A stretch of DNA of 64,000 nt from Bacteroidota bacterium (GCA_017303995.1 JAFLBE010000007.1:26163-90162), one strand, 5' to 3'. Shown: positions 1,911 to 38,662, numbered from the stretch's first letter. Notes: generated by a model from the letters alone, not told the origin. A program made the numbers and translations.

Positions 1911-3554
1911 ATGGCAAAGGTTAATGTTGAAGAATTGAAATTAAATTCAGATGGACTTCGTGGCGATATTGTTTCTGAATTCTCAAATGAAAAGTCAAAT
2001 GTAACCGAAGAAACGTATCAGTTACTTAAATTTCATGGCATGTATCTGCAGGATGATCGTGACCAACGGAAGCAAAGATCGTCTCAGGGGCTGGAACGTG
2101 CCTTTTCCTTCATGATCCGGTCCCGGATTCCGGGCGGACTCATCAATCCGGCTCAATATCTGGCCCATGATAAAATCAGCGACCAGTGGGGAAATCATAC
2201 CCTTCGTATCACAACCCGTGAAGCCTTTCAGGTTCATGGCATTCTCAAGGGTGATGTAAAGTCTGTCATCCAAACGATTAATCAATCATTGCTATCCACC
2301 ATTTCTGCTTGTGGTGATGTAAACCGAAATGTTATCGTAACAACCGATCCGGTAAAATCAAAAGTAAACCTGCAATTACAGGTTCTGGCTGAAAAAATTG
2401 CAGACCATTTAACTCCTAAATCAACTGCCTATCATGAAATCTGGCTGAATGGTGAACCTGCACTAAAGGCCGTAGAAGAACCCATTTACGGGAAAACTTA
2501 CCTTCCAAGAAAATTTAAAATTGCAATTACAAAATTTGGAGATAACTCAATAGATGTATTCACAAATGATATCGGAATTGTAGCAATTTTAAGAAATGAC
2601 CAGATTTCAGGATACAATCTTTATCTCGGTGGTGGTTTGGGAAAAACCCACAATATGGAAGAAACGTTTCCACGGTTGGCTGATCCGCTTGGATTTGTAA
2701 AAGAAGAAAAAATTATCGAAGTCGTCGAAGCCATTGTAAAAGTTCAACGTGATCACGGCAACAGAGAAAACCGCAAACTGGCCAGAATGAAATATCTGGT
2801 TGCATCAAAAGGAATCAGTTGGTTTCATGACCGGGTTGCTGAATTTACAGGATTTAAACTGGATTCAATTGTTCCGGTTTCTGATTGGCAGTATGCCAAA
2901 TATCTGGGGTGGACAGATCAGCAGGATGGAAAATGGACGTATGGGTTGTTCGTTGAAAATGGCAGGATTCTAGATAAGGACGGCTTCAATTTAAAATCTG
3001 CACTCAAAAAAATTGCCACCAATTTTAATGTCAGTTTCAGACTGACCGCAACCCAGGATATTCAAATCAGAGACATCAGTGAGAAGGATAAACTAGTAAT
3101 CAGTGATTTGCTCGCTGATCATGGTGTTGGTTTTAGTGAATCCCATTCAGAAACCCGAACCGCATCGATTGCCTGTCCGGCACTTCCAACGTGCGGATTG
3201 GCTTTGACTGAATCTGAACGTGTAATGCCAGATATTATTTCTTTGATCGATAAGAACCTGACTGAAGCTGGTTTACCCAATTTTCAGATTGTAACACGAA
3301 TGACCGGTTGCCCTAACGGTTGTGCCAGACCTTATGCAGCAGAACTGGCCTTTGTAGGCAAATCTGGAATTAACTATGAAATTCATGTTGGTGGAAGTCA
3401 TAACGGGACAAGACTAACTCAGGTCTATCTGGATTCCTGGCCAGCTTCCCGTTTTGATGAACTTTTTAAAGATCTTTTCACCCGTTTTGCATCCGAAAAA
3501 AATGAAAATGAAACGTTTGGAGATTGGTCTAACCGGTCATTGTTAAACAGATAA
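1911..3554 (+). CDS. cysI: Assimilatory sulfite reductase hemoprotein (siroheme/[4Fe-4S], NirA/Sir/CysI family)
   Basis: Nitrite/sulfite reductase ferredoxin-like half-domain repeats. The cysteine cluster [10 protein letters not shown]...[10 protein letters not shown] binds siroheme and the Fe-S centre. Confidence 0.9.
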
Positions 3555-3558
3555 AAAA

Positions 3559-4617
3559 ATGAAAATAAAATCAAAATTAAAATCCCCGTTTTTTGAAATT
3601 GGTATTAAAATAGTTTGGTTCAGTTTTTCCATCCAGACAGTTTTCTGTGCATGTGGAAACAACGATTCAAAAACTATTACTTTGTTGAATGTTTCCTATG
3701 ATCCAACCCGGGAACTCTATCAGGAATATGATTCTGTTTTTGCTGCGTATTGGAAGGAAAAGACAGGGAAGATTGTTGAAATCCATCAATCACATGGCGG
3801 TTCGGGGAAACAGGCACGGGCTGTTATTGACGGATTAGAAGCAGATGTGATTACTCTGGCTCTTGCATTCGACATTGATAACATTGCTGAAAAAGCCAAT
3901 TTACTTCCGCCAGACTGGCAGCAACGACTTCCAAACAACAGTTCACCTTATACTTCTACGATCATTTTTCTGGTACGGAAGGGAAATCCCAAACAGATTA
4001 AGGATTGGGATGATTTAGTGAGGCCCGGTGTCTCTGTCATCACGCCAAACCCAAAAACCTCTGGGGGTGCACGGTGGAATTATCTGGCTGCCTTCGGTTT
4101 TGCACTTGAAAAATTCAAGAACGATTCAACAAAAGCTAAAGCTTTTTTGGCTGACCTTTTCAAAAATGTTCCTGTTCTTGATTCCGGGGCAAGAGGATCG
4201 GCAACAACTTTTACTGAACGTGGAATTGGTGATGTTTTGATTACCTGGGAAAATGAAGCCTATCTCATTCTCAACTTCCCGGAAAAAGACAACTATGAAC
4301 CTGTTTATCCATCGGTCAGTATTCTGGCAGAACCGCCGGTTGCAGTTGTTGATTCAGTTGCTGTAAAACACGGAAGCCATGAAGTTGCAAAGGCCTATCT
4401 GGAGTTCCTTTATGAGAAAAAAAGTCAGGAAATCATAGTAAAGAACTACTACCGTCCGAATAACCCTGAACTTGCAGAAATGTATAAGTCACAATTTCCT
4501 GCACTTCGTCAATTCACCATAGACAAAGATTTTGGCGGATGGAAGGTGGCACAAAAACTGCATTTTAGTGATGGCGGAATTTTTGACCAGATTTACAAAC
4601 CAACAGAGAAAAAATAA
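3559..4617 (+). CDS. sbp: Sulfate/thiosulfate ABC transporter substrate-binding protein
   Basis: Signal peptide plus a Sbp/CysP-like periplasmic binding fold ([18 protein letters not shown]). It sits immediately upstream of cysTWA. Confidence 0.85.
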
Positions 4618-7962: not shown

Positions 7963-8840
7963 ATCAGCTTGATCAGTTGGAAGCCAGAAGTGTTTACATT
8001 TTTCGTGAAGCTTATGCCAATTTCAAAAATTTGTGTATGCTTTGGTCCATCGGGAAAGACAGTACTGTTTTGTTGTGGCTGGCCAGAAAAGCCTTTTTTG
8101 GTCATGTTCCATTTCCTCTGGTTCACATCGACACACATTATAAAATCCCGGCCATGATTGAATACAGAAATAAACTTGCTCTGGAGTTTAATCTGAATTT
8201 GATTTATGGTGAGAATACCGAAGCGTTGGCGAATAAACTGACCTTTCCTGATGGCAATGTTGACCGGCTGACCTGCTGTAAAAACCTGAAAGCGGATGCT
8301 TTGAAAAACACACTTTCAGGTGATTGGCCACGCTACAAATTGAATCATTCCAATGGCGAATTTGATCTGGACACAAACAGGGAAGCCTACACAGGCGTTA
8401 TTGTAGGGGCCCGTGCAGATGAAGAAGGAAGCCGTTCAAAGGAACGTTATTTTTCACCAAGGAATAAAGAAAGTTCGTGGGATGTGGGTGACCAACCGCC
8501 TGAATTCTGGAATCAATATAAAACTGATTTTGCTCCCGGAACCCACGTCAGAATTCATCCGCTTTTAGATTGGACTGAACTGAATATCTGGGAATATATC
8601 GAGAGGGAAAAAATCCCGACGGTTGATTTGTACTACAATCAGGGCGAAGGAAAACGGTTTCGTTCTCTCGGTTGCTGGCCCTGTACACATTCTGTCGATT
8701 CTGAAAGCAGGAATGTTGTCGAAATTATTGAAGAATTGAAAACTGGTAAATTTGCTAACATTGCAGAAAGATCTGGTCGCGCTCAGGATAAAGAAGATGG
8801 TGGCGGACTCGAAACCCTCAGAAGAGAAGGATATATGTAG
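7959..8840 (+). CDS. cysD: Sulfate adenylyltransferase subunit 2
   Basis: PAPS-reductase-like ATP pyrophosphatase fold ([13 protein letters not shown]). It lies directly upstream of cysN. Confidence 0.9.
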
Positions 8841-8842
8841 GG

Positions 8843-8877
8843 GAATAACGAATAACGAATAGCGAATTACGAAACGA
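8843..8877. repeat. Heptanucleotide tandem-repeat array 1 (GAATAAC x2, GAATAGC, GAATTAC, GAAACGA) in the cysD-cysN spacer
   Basis: Exact period-7 phasing read directly. It is followed by AGTTCTGCGATGCC (8878-8891) and then a CCCCCTCC hairpin. Confidence 0.7.
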
Positions 8878-12346: not shown

Positions 12347-12388
12347 CTTACCACTTATAACTTATAACTAGTGCTTACTTGTCTCTCT
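12347..12388. repeat. Heptanucleotide tandem-repeat array 2 (CTTACCA CTTATAA CTTATAA CTAGTGC TTACTTG...) overlapping the 3' end of the AAA ATPase gene
   Basis: Period-7 phasing. The reverse complement reads GTTATAA GTTATAA GTGGTAA, the same unit family as array 4. Confidence 0.6.
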
Positions 12389-14281: not shown

Positions 14282-14674
14282 ATGAAAACTAAAATGATTC
14301 TCCCCGCACTTTTTATCAGCTTACTTGCAGGTTCCGCATTTTCACAAACTCCTGCAGGACCGCCAGATCCCCAGAAACAATTAGACAGAATGACTCAGCA
14401 ACTTAATCTCGACGCCTCGCAACAGGAAAAAATAAAAGCCATTCTTCAGGCGGCAGAAAAGGACCGTGAAGCTATGAAAGCTGATCGTCTTGAAAAAGCA
14501 AAAGAAGTTTCTGGCAAAATCGAACAGGTTTTGAATGCTGAACAAAAGGTCAAATTCAAGGAAATGAAAGAAAAGCGCATAAAAGAAATGAAAGAGCGCA
14601 AAGCCGACAGGAAAGAAGGAAAAAAAGGTCGTAAAGGCCATCCTGAAGATAAACCAGAATCAGAAAAACCTTGA
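14282..14674 (+). CDS. Small periplasmic protein, Spy/CpxP/ZraP-like (LTxxQ-type helical, lysine-rich tail)
   Basis: Signal peptide MKTKMILPALFISLLAGSAFSQ, repeated QQxxI helices, highly charged K/E-rich C-terminus. Family assignment is by pattern only. Confidence 0.4.
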   Translation: MKTKMILPALFISLLAGSAFSQTPAGPPDPQKQLDRMTQQLNLDASQQEKIKAILQAAEKDREAMKADRLEKAKEVSGKIEQVLNAEQKVKFKEMKEKRIKEMKERKADRKEGKKGRKGHPEDKPESEKP

Positions 14675-14696
14675 TTCAACAGACTTTTTAAGCAGC

Positions 14697-14727
14697 CACC
14701 CGGGTCAAATCCGGGTGGTAATTTTTT
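14697..14727 (+). terminator. Intrinsic terminator CCACCCGG-gtcaaat-CCGGGTGG followed by TAATTTTTT
   Basis: Perfect 8-bp GC-rich stem followed by a T-run, 20 nt after the stop of the 14282-14674 gene. Confidence 0.7.
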
Positions 14728-14750
14728 AAACCCACCATCAAAATCCTGTC

Positions 14751-14813
14751 TTCTGACTCCAGACTCCTGACTTCTGACTCCTGCAATCTTTCTTCTGTCA
14801 CCTGAATTCTGTA
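14751..14813. repeat. Heptanucleotide tandem-repeat array 3 (TTCTGAC TCCAGAC TCCTGAC TTCTGAC TCCTGCA ATCTTTC TTCTGTC ACCTGAA TTCTGTA) upstream of gatB
   Basis: Nine phased 7-mers read directly. Unit YYCTGAC shares the TGAC/GTCA core with arrays 4 and 6. Confidence 0.7.
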
Positions 14814-14841
14814 TTTTCAGAGATTTAACCGGAATTATAGA

Positions 14842-16290
14842 ATGAATCACCCGAAATACGAAGCTGTAATCGGACTCGAAGTCCACGCACAATTATCAAC
14901 TAAAACCAAAATTTTCTGCGGTTGCTCAACTAAATTTGGTGCGGCACCGAATAGTCAGGTTTGTCCTGTTTGTCTTGGGATGCCCGGCGTTCTTCCTGTA
15001 CTCAACGAAAAAGTAGTTGAATATGTGATCCGAATGGGACTTGCCCACGGTTGTGATATTGCGGAACGGTCAACCTTCGCCCGGAAAAATTATTTCTACC
15101 CTGACCTTCCGAAAGGCTATCAGATATCCCAGTATGAAGATCCGATTTGCGCCAACGGCAGTGTTCAGTTTAAACTTGAAGACGGAACTGAAAAATCAGT
15201 TCGGCTTATGCGGATTCATATGGAAGAAGATGCCGGAAAGTCATTGCATGATCAGCATCAGGATACTTTTGTAGATTTGAACCGGGCCGGAACGCCACTG
15301 ATTGAAATCGTTTCCCAGCCGGATATCAAAACTGCAGAAGAAGCCGGAGCTTATCTTACCAAGCTTCGTCAGGCAGTCAGATATCTCGAAATTTGTGACG
15401 GAAATATGGAAGAAGGATCACTTCGATGTGATGCCAACGTTTCTGTCATGCTCAGAGGATCTAAAGAATTCGGAACCCGTACCGAACTGAAAAACCTGAA
15501 TTCAATTAAGTTCGTCGAAAAAGCCATTGACGCTGAAATTGCCCGTCAGATTGACATTATCGAAGATGGCGGAAAAATTATTCAGTCGACTATGGGTTAT
15601 GACCCGCACCGGAACGAAACCCGGGTTCTCAGAACCAAGGAAAATGCACACGACTACCGGTATTTTCCTGATCCTGATTTGGTCATGGTTCACGTTACTG
15701 AAGACAGGATTACAAAAGTCCGCAATGAAATGCCAGAGCTTCCTGATCAGAAGAAAAACAGACTGGTTAGTCAGTACGGAATTCCGGTTTATGATGCAGA
15801 AGTGCTTTCCGCAGATAAAGAACTTGCAAATTATTATGAATCGGTTTGTAAGGAAACAACTGATTTTAAGGCAGCCTCCAACTGGGTGATGGGCGAAGTC
15901 ATGCGGATCATGAAGGAAAAATTGCTTTCAATATCCGAGTTCTCTCTCACCCCTGTTCAAATTGCCGGAATTGTGAATCTGATCAAAGACGGAAAAATCA
16001 GTACTACAATAGGGAAGCAATTATTTGAAGAACTGTTGGCAAATGGTGGTGATCCTGCAACTGTTGTTGAAGCCAAAGGTTGGCTCCAGGTTTCTGATAC
16101 CGGAGCAATTGAATCTGTTATTGATACCGTGATTGCCTCAAATCCCGGTCAGGTAGCTGAATTTGTTGGCGGAAAGGATAAACTTTTTGGTTTCTTCGTT
16201 GGCCAGACCATGAAAGCCATGAAAGGGCAGGGAAACCCAAAAGTCATCAATGATATTCTGGTTAAAAAACTGGAAGCCCTGAAAAGCTAA
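14842..16290 (+). CDS. gatB: Aspartyl/glutamyl-tRNA(Asn/Gln) amidotransferase subunit B
   Basis: N-terminus YEAVIGLEVHAQL, CGC...CPVCLG zinc motif, C-terminal GatB/YqeY domain. Confidence 0.95.
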   Translation: MNHPKYEAVIGLEVHAQLSTKTKIFCGCSTKFGAAPNSQVCPVCLGMPGVLPVLNEKVVEYVIRMGLAHGCDIAERSTFARKNYFYPDLPKGYQISQYEDPICANGSVQFKLEDGTEKSVRLMRIHMEEDAGKSLHDQHQDTFVDLNRAGTPLIEIVSQPDIKTAEEAGAYLTKLRQAVRYLEICDGNMEEGSLRCDANVSVMLRGSKEFGTRTELKNLNSIKFVEKAIDAEIARQIDIIEDGGKIIQSTMGYDPHRNETRVLRTKENAHDYRYFPDPDLVMVHVTEDRITKVRNEMPELPDQKKNRLVSQYGIPVYDAEVLSADKELANYYESVCKETTDFKAASNWVMGEVMRIMKEKLLSISEFSLTPVQIAGIVNLIKDGKISTTIGKQLFEELLANGGDPATVVEAKGWLQVSDTGAIESVIDTVIASNPGQVAEFVGGKDKLFGFFVGQTMKAMKGQGNPKVINDILVKKLEALKS

Positions 16291-37439: not shown

Positions 37440-38456
37440 ATGAAAGTGTATTACAGTGATGACGCCTCCCTTGATAATCTTAAAGGGAAAAAAGTTGCCG
37501 TTATCGGTTTCGGAAGTCAGGGACACGCACATTCCCTGAACCTGATGGACAGCGGAATGAATGTTACCGTTGGATTACGGAAAGAAAGTGCAAGCTGGGC
37601 AAAAGCTGAAGCTGCCGGTCTTGCTGTAAAAACAGTTTCTGATGCTTCTGCATGGGCCGATATCATCATGATTTTGCTTCCTGATCAGACTCAAAAAGCT
37701 GTTTATGATGCTGAAATTGCACCTCACTTGACTGCCGGAAAAACCCTGGCTTTTGCACACGGATTCAATATTCACTTCAAGGTTATTGTTCCTCCCGCAA
37801 ATGTGAACGTGATCATGATTGCACCCAAAAGCCCCGGTCACCTGGTTCGCCGTACTTACGTTCAGGGCAATGGTGTTCCTTGTTTGATTGCTATTCATCA
37901 GGATGCAACCGGCAATGCTTTGGCTTTGGCTTTGGCCTGGTCAAAGGGAATTGGCGGAACCTTCGCTGGTGTAATTGAAACTACTTTCAAAGATGAAACT
38001 GAAACTGATTTGTTTGGCGAGCAGGCTGTTCTTTGCGGCGGATCTGCAGAAATCATCAAAGCAGGTTTTGAGACTCTGGTTGAAGCAGGTTACCCAGCTG
38101 AACTGGCTTATTTCGAATGTATGCACGAACTGAAACTGATCGTTGACCTGTATTATGAAGGCGGACTTACCCGCATGAACTATTCAGTTTCTGATACCGC
38201 AGAATATGGTGGAATGACCCGCGGACCACGTCTGGTTACCGGCGAAACCAAAAAAGAAATGAAGAAAATTCTGGAAGAAATCCAATCCGGCCAATTTGCA
38301 AAAGAATTTTTGGCTGAAACCAATGGCGACAAAGCCAATTTTGAAAAGCTCCGGAAAGAAAACCGTGAACATCCGATTGAAAAAGTTGGAACCAAACTTC
38401 GCGGAATGATGAGCTTCCTGTTCAAAAAAGACAAACGTGAAGAAGTAGGCGTTTAA
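37440..38456 (+). CDS. ilvC: Ketol-acid reductoisomerase (class I)
   Basis: [20 protein letters not shown] motif, [11 protein letters not shown]. 338 aa. Confidence 0.95.
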
Positions 38457-38462
38457 TAACCA

Positions 38463-38634
38463 GTGACAAGTTACAAGTGACAAGTTACAAGTGGTAAGTT
38501 ATAAGTGACAAATTACAGGTTACGGGTGACACGAGAATAAAAACTCCCCTCCTTTTTAAGGAGGGGAAATCAGTCGTAAGACTGATGGGGTGGTTCGGTC
38601 TTTGGCCCACGTCCCATGTCCCCTGTCACTTGTC
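38463..38634. repeat. 172-bp composite intergenic element: left heptamer array 4 (10 units), CCCCTCC hairpin, right inverted heptamer array (MITE-like terminal inverted arrays)
   Basis: Left array GTGACAA GTTACAA ... GTGACAC (38463-38532). Hairpin CCCCTCCTT-ttt-AAGGAGGGG (38546-66). Right array GTCCCAT GTCCCCT GTCACTT GTCACCA (38607-34) is in inverse orientation. Confidence 0.65.
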
Positions 38635-38662
38635 ACCAGCATTTTAAAAGAAAGCAAGTTCA

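Follow-up and report, generated by a model that had tools for sequence, protein, structure and literature searches.

How does a run of similar heptads come to occupy the gap between one gene's terminator and the next gene's promoter, and does the repeat do anything for that promoter? The question is raised by the spacer in front of gatB in the 64-kb stretch of DNA analysed here (the window), where positions 14744-14813, read in steps of seven across 14730-14827, resolve into ten in-phase heptads of the TYCTGAC type (in order TCCTGTC, TTCTGAC, TCCAGAC, TCCTGAC, TTCTGAC, TCCTGCA, ATCTTTC, TTCTGTC, ACCTGAA and TTCTGTA). The array is free of indels and its YYCTG starts all share one phase modulo 7; the nine heptads in exact 7-nt phase that a preliminary description had placed at 14751-14813 are confirmed, with one further unit upstream at 14744. 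Heptads 1-5 are good copies of TYCTGAC, heptads 6-10 are degenerate (about 4-5 of 7 positions matching), and at most two identical units are adjacent anywhere in the array. Within these 70 nt the self-match at lags of 7, 14, 21 and 28 is 0.63, 0.68, 0.71 and 0.60, and at the remaining lags from 1 to 27 it is 0.12-0.32. TRF reports both a period of 7 (5.7 copies, 14744-14783, score 52) and a 21-nt super-period (3.4 copies, 14742-14812, score 77), which together with the slightly highest self-match at lag 21 points to a higher-order block of three units.

The array is bounded on both sides by well-defined features on the same (+) strand. Upstream, an ORF at 14282-14674 encodes a 130-aa Lys/Glu-rich protein with a hydrophobic, signal-peptide-like N-terminus, the orthologues of which give weak matches to PF07813 (LTXXQ) and PF13801 (Metal_resist). 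It is followed by an intrinsic terminator at 14695-14727 consisting of a hairpin (14695-14719; 11-bp stem with 7 G-C pairs) and a run of six T residues (14722-14727); the related contig L003 likewise carries a hairpin and T-run, with a different stem sequence. The array starts 17 nt past the T-run and ends 28 nt before the ATG of gatB (14842-16290), which encodes subunit B of the Asp/Glu-tRNA amidotransferase (482 aa, GatB_N and GatB_Yqey domains; PF02934, PF02637), so that the placement between a strong terminator and gatB described earlier holds. The spacer is identical in two independent Logan assemblies of the same strain (L001 and L002, 100% and 99.96% identical to the window over 4.1 and 2.4 kb), and the array is therefore not an assembly artefact. 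The closest matches to the window GatB, at 99-100% identity, come from MAGs labelled 'Bacteroidetes bacterium', and its next named relatives are from Ignavibacteriales, Kryptonia and Melioribacter (~60% identity), in keeping with the earlier remark that the gene content is not cyanobacterial.

The array is not coding, since all three forward frames are interrupted by TGA and the spacer alleles described below differ by indels (34 and 70 nt) that are not multiples of three. The only ORF spanning the array, an antisense frame of 148 aa (14446-14892), was also rejected: two well-supported genes overlap it, and the same indels disrupt it in alleles B and C. A candidate role as a transcribed RNA element, acting either on translation as part of the gatB 5'-UTR or as a 3'-UTR extension of the upstream gene, would suit mRNAs of the Bacteroidota type, which are without Shine-Dalgarno sequences and for which heptamers near start codons have been proposed to bind S1, Csp or CsrA-like proteins; moreover, other arrays of the window begin 3-6 nt after stop codons, among them the GAATAAC array at 8843-8877 (3 nt past the stop codon of a PAPS reductase gene), and so may be transcribed. 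At gatB, however, the strong terminator ends 17 nt before the array, a conserved -7-like box lies at the array's 3' end, and the last heptad stops 28 nt from the ATG instead of within a few nucleotides of it. RNA structure in the array region does not exceed that of shuffled sequence (z = +0.26) and the search for Rfam families in the region returned no credible match (best E-value 0.58, scores far below gathering thresholds). We consequently give the RNA reading very little weight.

The gatB array is one of several in this DNA. The 64 kb were scanned for 28-nt segments, taken as a sliding window, with 21 or more self-matches, and 30 dinucleotide-preserving shuffles served as control. Period 7 yielded four regions in 64 kb (8839-8877, 14743-14789, 38454-38508 and 38602-38640), periods 4-6 and 8-13 yielded none in the same scan, and the shuffles gave 0.00-0.03 regions per period. 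Period 7 is the sole enriched period in the window, with four to five arrays of at least four unit types; the enrichment over shuffled sequence that had been predicted is confirmed over these 64 kb, from which a genome-wide array count is an extrapolation. The proposal that the genome tolerates several heptamer families also stands: in addition to the gatB unit the window contains GAATAAC (5 units, 8843), AGTKACA (10 units, 38462), CCCAYGT/CACTTGT (5 units, 38606), CACTTRY (4 units, 59487) and ACTTATA (2.4 units, 12353). Every array sits in intergenic DNA, which makes up 11.6% of the window (chance of five out of five ~2e-5 by simple arithmetic), as expected if selection against frameshifts purges 7-nt units from coding DNA. 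Across 215 kb comprising the window and non-redundant related loci, 18 period-7 arrays were found and each other period from 4 to 13 gave 0-2. Unit families recur within the clade (3 near-identical pairs vs 0.79 expected, P = 0.043); an ACTT core common to these families is weakly supported by the same near-identical units (P = 0.043) and is not relied on here. Single copies of TYCTGAC are in about twofold excess in the window (34 vs 15.2 ± 3.5 expected, a count reached by none of 100 dinucleotide-preserving shuffles); they are mostly intragenic, and codon usage may explain the excess.

Comparison of the spacer, taken from the small-protein gene to gatB, among contigs encoding close GatB homologues resolves five alleles. 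Allele A (window, L001 and L002) is 167 nt long with 10 units. Allele D (L003 and L004, GatB 97%) is 187 nt long with 13 units and no insert, its array being related to that of allele A by one clean 21-nt (three-unit) gap. Allele B (L012, 201 nt) has the units of allele A with a 36-nt insert replacing the 'TG' of unit 4; allele C (L013, L014 from GCA_020161835.1, L015 and L017) is 237 nt long, 70 nt longer than allele A, and reads as 5.6 units, the insert and 9 units; and allele E (L139, 251 nt) has ~2 decayed units, a 76-nt version of the insert and 9 units. The length polymorphism that the preliminary description had made its test is thus present between related lineages. DNA identity to the window is 92-93% for the B, C and E lineages and ~84% for the D lineage, so that the polymorphism lies between species-level lineages and not demonstrably within a population; a scan of metagenome DNA for further spacer alleles added none. 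Unit variants are specific to alleles and repeated inside them (TTCTAAC/TTCTATC in C and E, TYCTGAC in A, TTCTNNC in D), a pattern typical of arrays that evolve in concert through slippage or unequal exchange. Unit number also varies in a second array, at 12353-12369 between convergent inositol-phosphatase and AAA-ATPase genes, where the window has 2.4 units of ACTTATA and L012:1-54 has ~7 units of CACTTAC/CACTTAT, the L012 contig beginning inside the array.

The variation is unevenly distributed along the array. All of the length changes and the insert fall within the six distal heptads (14744-14785), the number and type of which vary among alleles A-E. The 56 nt before the ATG (14786-14841), which include the four proximal, degenerate heptads 7-10 (14786-14813), show 0-2 differences between the window and its array-bearing relatives. 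At third codon positions of gatB, divergence from the window is 16-21% for B, C and E and 35% for D, rates at which ~9-12 (B, C, E) and 19 (D) differences would be expected in 56 nt. Relatives with 77-91% GatB identity (L005, L006, L007 and L010) have no array at the gatB site: in L007 (GCA_013360915.1) and L010 (GatB 77-78%) the spacers are 84 and 105 nt long, and in L005 and L006 (GatB 90-91%) gltB-gltD stands between the two genes. Neither the lineage of L005 and L006 nor GCA_013360915.1 has an array in the ~21 kb sampled around the site. The gltB-gltD pair, encoding the large and small subunits of glutamate synthase (L005:3715-9893, L006:3703-9893), occupies exactly the spacer that carries the heptad array in the window lineage.

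Conservation of the proximal units coincides with a putative promoter. The Bacteroidetes sigma-A consensus comprises a -7 element TAnnTTTG and a TTTG near -33 (PMC7366714). A candidate -7 box, TATTTTCA, lies at 14812-14819 (+) and is invariant in the array-bearing alleles and in L005/L006, and a candidate -33 element (TTTC vs the consensus TTTG) lies 19 nt upstream of it at 14789-14792 (+), where CTTT is invariant (alignment A3). In the same alignment the 19-nt spacing between the two elements does not vary and CTTTnTTCTGnC followed by TATTTTCAnAGATTT is invariant in all lineages, including the array-less L005/L006; CTTTnTTCTGnC...TATTTTCA is kept even in relatives without the array. Boxes equivalent to TATTTTCA are present ~30 nt before the ATG in L010 (TATTTTTG) and L007 (TATTTTTA). 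More generally, upstream regions in the window are without Shine-Dalgarno sequences and many have TAnnTTT(G/A) boxes 27-53 nt before the start codon. We infer from these alignments a gatB promoter with its -33 element at 14789-14792, a 19-nt spacer, its -7 element at 14812-14819 and a transcription start near 14825, which would place the distal heptads 1-6 at about -81 to -40 and the proximal heptads 7-10 across the core promoter. A sigma-70 promoter was considered and set aside, the only hits putting the -10 hexamer implausibly on the gatB start codon. Relatives at 90-91% GatB identity, which have no array, carry a single TTCTGAC in their promoter that is homologous to heptad 8 (TTCTGTC, 14793-14799), suggesting that the array unit is native to the promoter; this promoter heptad either seeded the array or is its sole remnant.

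Taken with the period-7 enrichment and the allele series, this arrangement leads us to consider it probable that the array is an STRR-like long simple-sequence repeat with a heptanucleotide unit, produced by slippage and serving distally as a nearly neutral spacer. The array would occupy the gap between the upstream terminator and the gatB core promoter, a gap that is probably not transcribed. Its unit would match TTCTGWC, a heptad of the gatB promoter itself that is located between the -33 and -7 elements, and replication slippage or unequal exchange between heptads would make the array grow, shrink and homogenise, sometimes in 21-nt blocks. Selection may freeze the four proximal units because they form part of promoter and leader, while the six distal units (~-40 to -81) would remain an expandable spacer under little constraint that at most sets the distance from terminator to promoter. 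One observation counts against slippage with near-neutrality: heptads 1-3 are identical in alleles A, B and C although synonymous divergence is 16-21%.

The preliminary description had further suggested that the array could influence gatB expression through DNA curvature or through phase variation by unit slippage, and the data favour neither. In a wedge-model calculation based on dinucleotide angles the array has an end-to-end/contour ratio of 0.988-0.991, among the straightest 3-9% of 63-bp windows in the 64 kb and hence straighter than 91-97% of them; synthetic (TTCTGAC)15 gives 0.997 vs 0.83 for phased A-tracts. Predicted curvature is absent: a 7-bp period does not keep phase with the helical repeat of 10.5 bp, and bends spaced by 7 bp rotate by 240 degrees and cancel every 21 bp. 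A contingency switch would find some encouragement in the differences of unit number between lineages, yet the tract is imperfect, with no more than two identical adjacent units, and the same allele is present in both other assemblies of the strain (L001 and L002). What is found at gatB is neither a perfect tract in an ORF nor one between the core promoter elements as we place them: the variable part lies upstream of the putative -33 element, outside the -33/-7 interval with its invariant spacing, and the proximal part does not change. The variant alleles, moreover, belong to lineages 92-93% identical and not to one population, and gatB is a housekeeping gene. A phase-variable switch or a curvature element controlling gatB is thus extremely unlikely.

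Units of the gatB type are widely distributed outside this lineage. A scan for (TYCTGAC)x3 with one genome per species returned at least 120 stretches where ~2 would be expected by chance (our own arithmetic), and the at least 120 loci (837 kb) contain 281 period-7 arrays, compared with at most 16 at any other period. Among the matches listed, 89 of the 112 testable TYCTGAC arrays are not inside long open frames. Of 80 loci listed, 37 are cyanobacterial (Okeania, Microcoleus, Anabaena, Nostoc, Dolichospermum, Microcystis, Moorena, Scytonema and others), 11 are from Acidobacteriota, 8 from Bacteroidota, 6 from Proteobacteria, 4 each from Verrucomicrobiota/Kiritimatiellota and Nitrospirota, and 10 from other phyla or unassigned. 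A GGAGTCA/GAATTAA array is also present in the 78% GatB relative L010 (19309-19359), between an ABC-transporter ATPase gene and nadA and thus at a locus unrelated to gatB, GGAGTCA being the reverse complement of a rotated TCCTGAC. The arrays in at least 120 other genomes and at this unrelated locus argue against purely local, random seeding, and together with the recurrence of unit families in the clade (P = 0.043) they hint at a sequence preference contributed by a protein or by the amplification mechanism; for this reason a modest probability is kept for readings that invoke a binding protein or a dedicated mechanism.

The gatB array belongs to a known class of heptanucleotide repeats (STRR-like LSSR), having tandem 7-nt units, several unit families, a non-coding location and differences in unit number between relatives. 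The likeness to cyanobacterial STRRs drawn earlier is apt, since tandem TYCTGAC is present in Anabaena, Nostoc, Dolichospermum, Scytonema, Microcystis and Okeania, and the STRRs of Calothrix, Nostoc and Anabaena share with the gatB array their tandem 7-nt units, their several families and their intergenic position. The three named Calothrix units are CCCCAGT, TTGGTCA and CAACAGT. The gatB unit is not among them, its host is an uncultured Bacteroidota/Ignavibacteria-related bacterium and the window arrays are short and degenerate, so that in the strict sense, which takes a cyanobacterial host and units STRR1-3, the array is not an STRR. Heptanucleotides are the most abundant class of long SSR in many prokaryotes, and polymerase slippage has been proposed as their cause (Mrazek et al., 2007, summarised in PMC4679880 and PMC4692102). 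The GGGAATC-type repeats of Xanthomonas and Nostoc vary widely in length and sequence between close relatives at the same intergenic sites (PMC4692102), with 7-nt increments separating close relatives of Xanthomonas; these LSSRs and the gatB array have in common the over-representation of period 7, an intergenic location, same-site variation and the lack of any visible link to gene function, whereas the gatB unit is not G-rich and therefore has no G-quadruplex potential.

Two further systems resemble the gatB array in unit or in distribution. In Geobacter metallireducens the sequence MTYCTGA, which is the TYCTGAC heptad rotated by one position, occurs at 16 sites, each with about five units in tandem and most of them paired in inverted orientation; these sites are annotated as predicted binding sites for the global regulators IHF/HU (PMC2700814). 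Both repeats are tandem and intergenic, but the Geobacter sites form a 16-site BLAST family of mostly inverted pairs, whereas the array at gatB stands alone, is longer and varies in its number of units. At TAACTGA repeats, length differences between Cyanothece strains come in steps of 7 nt, several Bacteroidetes carry heptamer-repeat assemblages, and a translational role has been proposed for the TAACTGA repeats that lie near start codons in Beggiatoaceae (PMC4679880). The TAACTGA repeats of Beggiatoaceae, cyanobacteria and some Bacteroidetes are, like the gatB array, intergenic heptads with 7-nt indels scattered across phyla, and rotation of the allele C units gives TAACTTC, identical to TAACTGA at 5 of 7 positions. 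The gatB unit is nevertheless TYCTGAC/TTCTAAC, and its array lies behind a terminator and ends 28 nt before the ATG, which sets it outside the TAACTGA group.

The Geobacter annotation bears on a regulatory reading, in which the heptads would be candidate docking sites for a protein upstream of the gatB core promoter and their number would tune transcription, as at ctxAB of V. cholerae. There, TTTTGAT heptads bind ToxT and H-NS and their copy number correlates with promoter activity; at both loci the heptads lie directly upstream of, or run into, the core promoter and differ in copy number with the strain, although ctxAB is a virulence promoter with known ToxT and H-NS sites and gatB is a housekeeping gene. 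Deletion of the heptamers upstream of Nostoc recO alters promoter activity 1.5-2-fold. The position of the distal units (~-40 to -81 from the predicted start), the identity of units 1-3 in alleles A, B and C, and the recurrence of TYCTGAC at other loci and in at least 120 genomes of many phyla would fit the same reading. Against it, other loci of the genome carry the unrelated units GAATAAC, AGTKACA and CCCAYGT, so that no single protein would explain all arrays; units decay and are freely replaced, with G at unit position 5 becoming A or T in alleles C and E; some lineages tolerate an insert of 36-76 nt inside the array; the array is missing, with gatB unchanged, from the relatives sampled at 77-91% GatB identity; and gatB is expressed constitutively as a housekeeping gene. 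We judge it unlikely that the array acts as such a set of docking sites, and a regulatory device of consequence is likewise unlikely.

The optional insert brings in a different class of explanation. It is found inside the gatB array at L012:2435-2470, L013:9872-9907 and L139:~130-215; the 36-nt version, AATCCCGAAAGTGTTCGGGATCTTCGTTGCACTACG, contains an 8-bp hairpin (ATCCCGAA/TTCGGGAT), and the 76-nt version of L139 retains the same outer stem (RNA fold z = -2.2). The insert has no Rfam match. Its presence in alleles B, C and E would be compatible with an array that is no slippage product but marks a recombination hot spot or else a small mobile or foldback-type element, as its remnant or its docking site. 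Inverted pairs of heptad arrays around a hairpin or gene, as at 38462/38606 in the window, around the PF05635 gene of L013, and in L079 and L087, can be cited for this reading, as can the mostly inverted Geobacter sites, some with IS elements at a fixed distance, and the insertion of gltB-gltD in the same spacer in the 90-91% GatB relatives. The window allele, however, has neither an inverted partner nor the insert, and neither target-site duplications nor a nearby transposase was found. The possibility that the 36-nt insert is a dispersed element was rejected, there being no other copy in the window or related loci (~250 kb of the clade). Whole-unit indels and homogenisation within alleles are what slippage predicts. 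An origin of the gatB array in a mobile element or recombination hot spot is therefore very unlikely.

The inverted arrangements are of some interest in themselves. The window arrays at 38462-38531 (AGTKACA x10) and 38606-38640 (CCCAYGT/CACTTGT x5) share one 206-nt spacer in inverted orientation, CACTTGT being the reverse complement of a rotated AGTGACA, and between them lies a terminator-like hairpin (CTCCCCTCC-TTTTTAA-GGAGGGGA). In L013 and L014 the spacer that holds the GAATAAC array contains an extra gene for a 127-aa protein of the 23S_rRNA_IVP family (PF05635), with the array and its flank in forward orientation on one side and an inverted copy downstream (GCAGAACTATCGTTTCG... TCGTCAT x4); the L013 arrays are at 2984-3040 and 3530-3622, and L014 is arranged likewise. 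Inverted TYCTGAC pairs are also present in L079 (5984-6039 and 6161-6223) and in L087.

TYCTGAC arrays, present in at least 120 genomes, frequently form inverted pairs that enclose a hairpin or a small cargo gene, and this leads to a broader conjecture: that heptad arrays drawn from a small set of units are the footprint of an undescribed sequence-specific system spread across phyla, for which a chromosomal protein that binds heptads, or a foldback-like mechanism of mobility or recombination, would be a candidate. We think this quite improbable. On that view, gatB would carry a solo site, and access to the promoter would be tuned by the number of units.

Heptanucleotide repeats are best known as the STRRs of cyanobacteria and have also been described in Xanthomonas, Burkholderia, Beggiatoaceae, Geobacter and a few Bacteroidetes; the present arrays extend them to an uncultured, deep-branching lineage related to Bacteroidota/Ignavibacteria. 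With slippage and a nearly neutral distal spacer as the favoured explanation, the gatB locus would illustrate how a repeat can share its heptad with a promoter, build on it and leave an essential gene undisturbed. Its five alleles, with turnover in the distal units and frozen proximal units, constitute an unusually clean natural series. The occurrence of TYCTGAC across many phyla keeps alive a question now 35 years old, namely what favours a period of seven and these particular units, for which the gatB alleles offer a tractable locus. That unit length itself can change within one tract is suggested by L087:1050-1560, from a MAG of the Acidobacteriota, where a tract drifts over ~450 nt from AGAAGTC heptads through AGAATC hexads to AAATC pentads ahead of the inverted TTCTGAC array.
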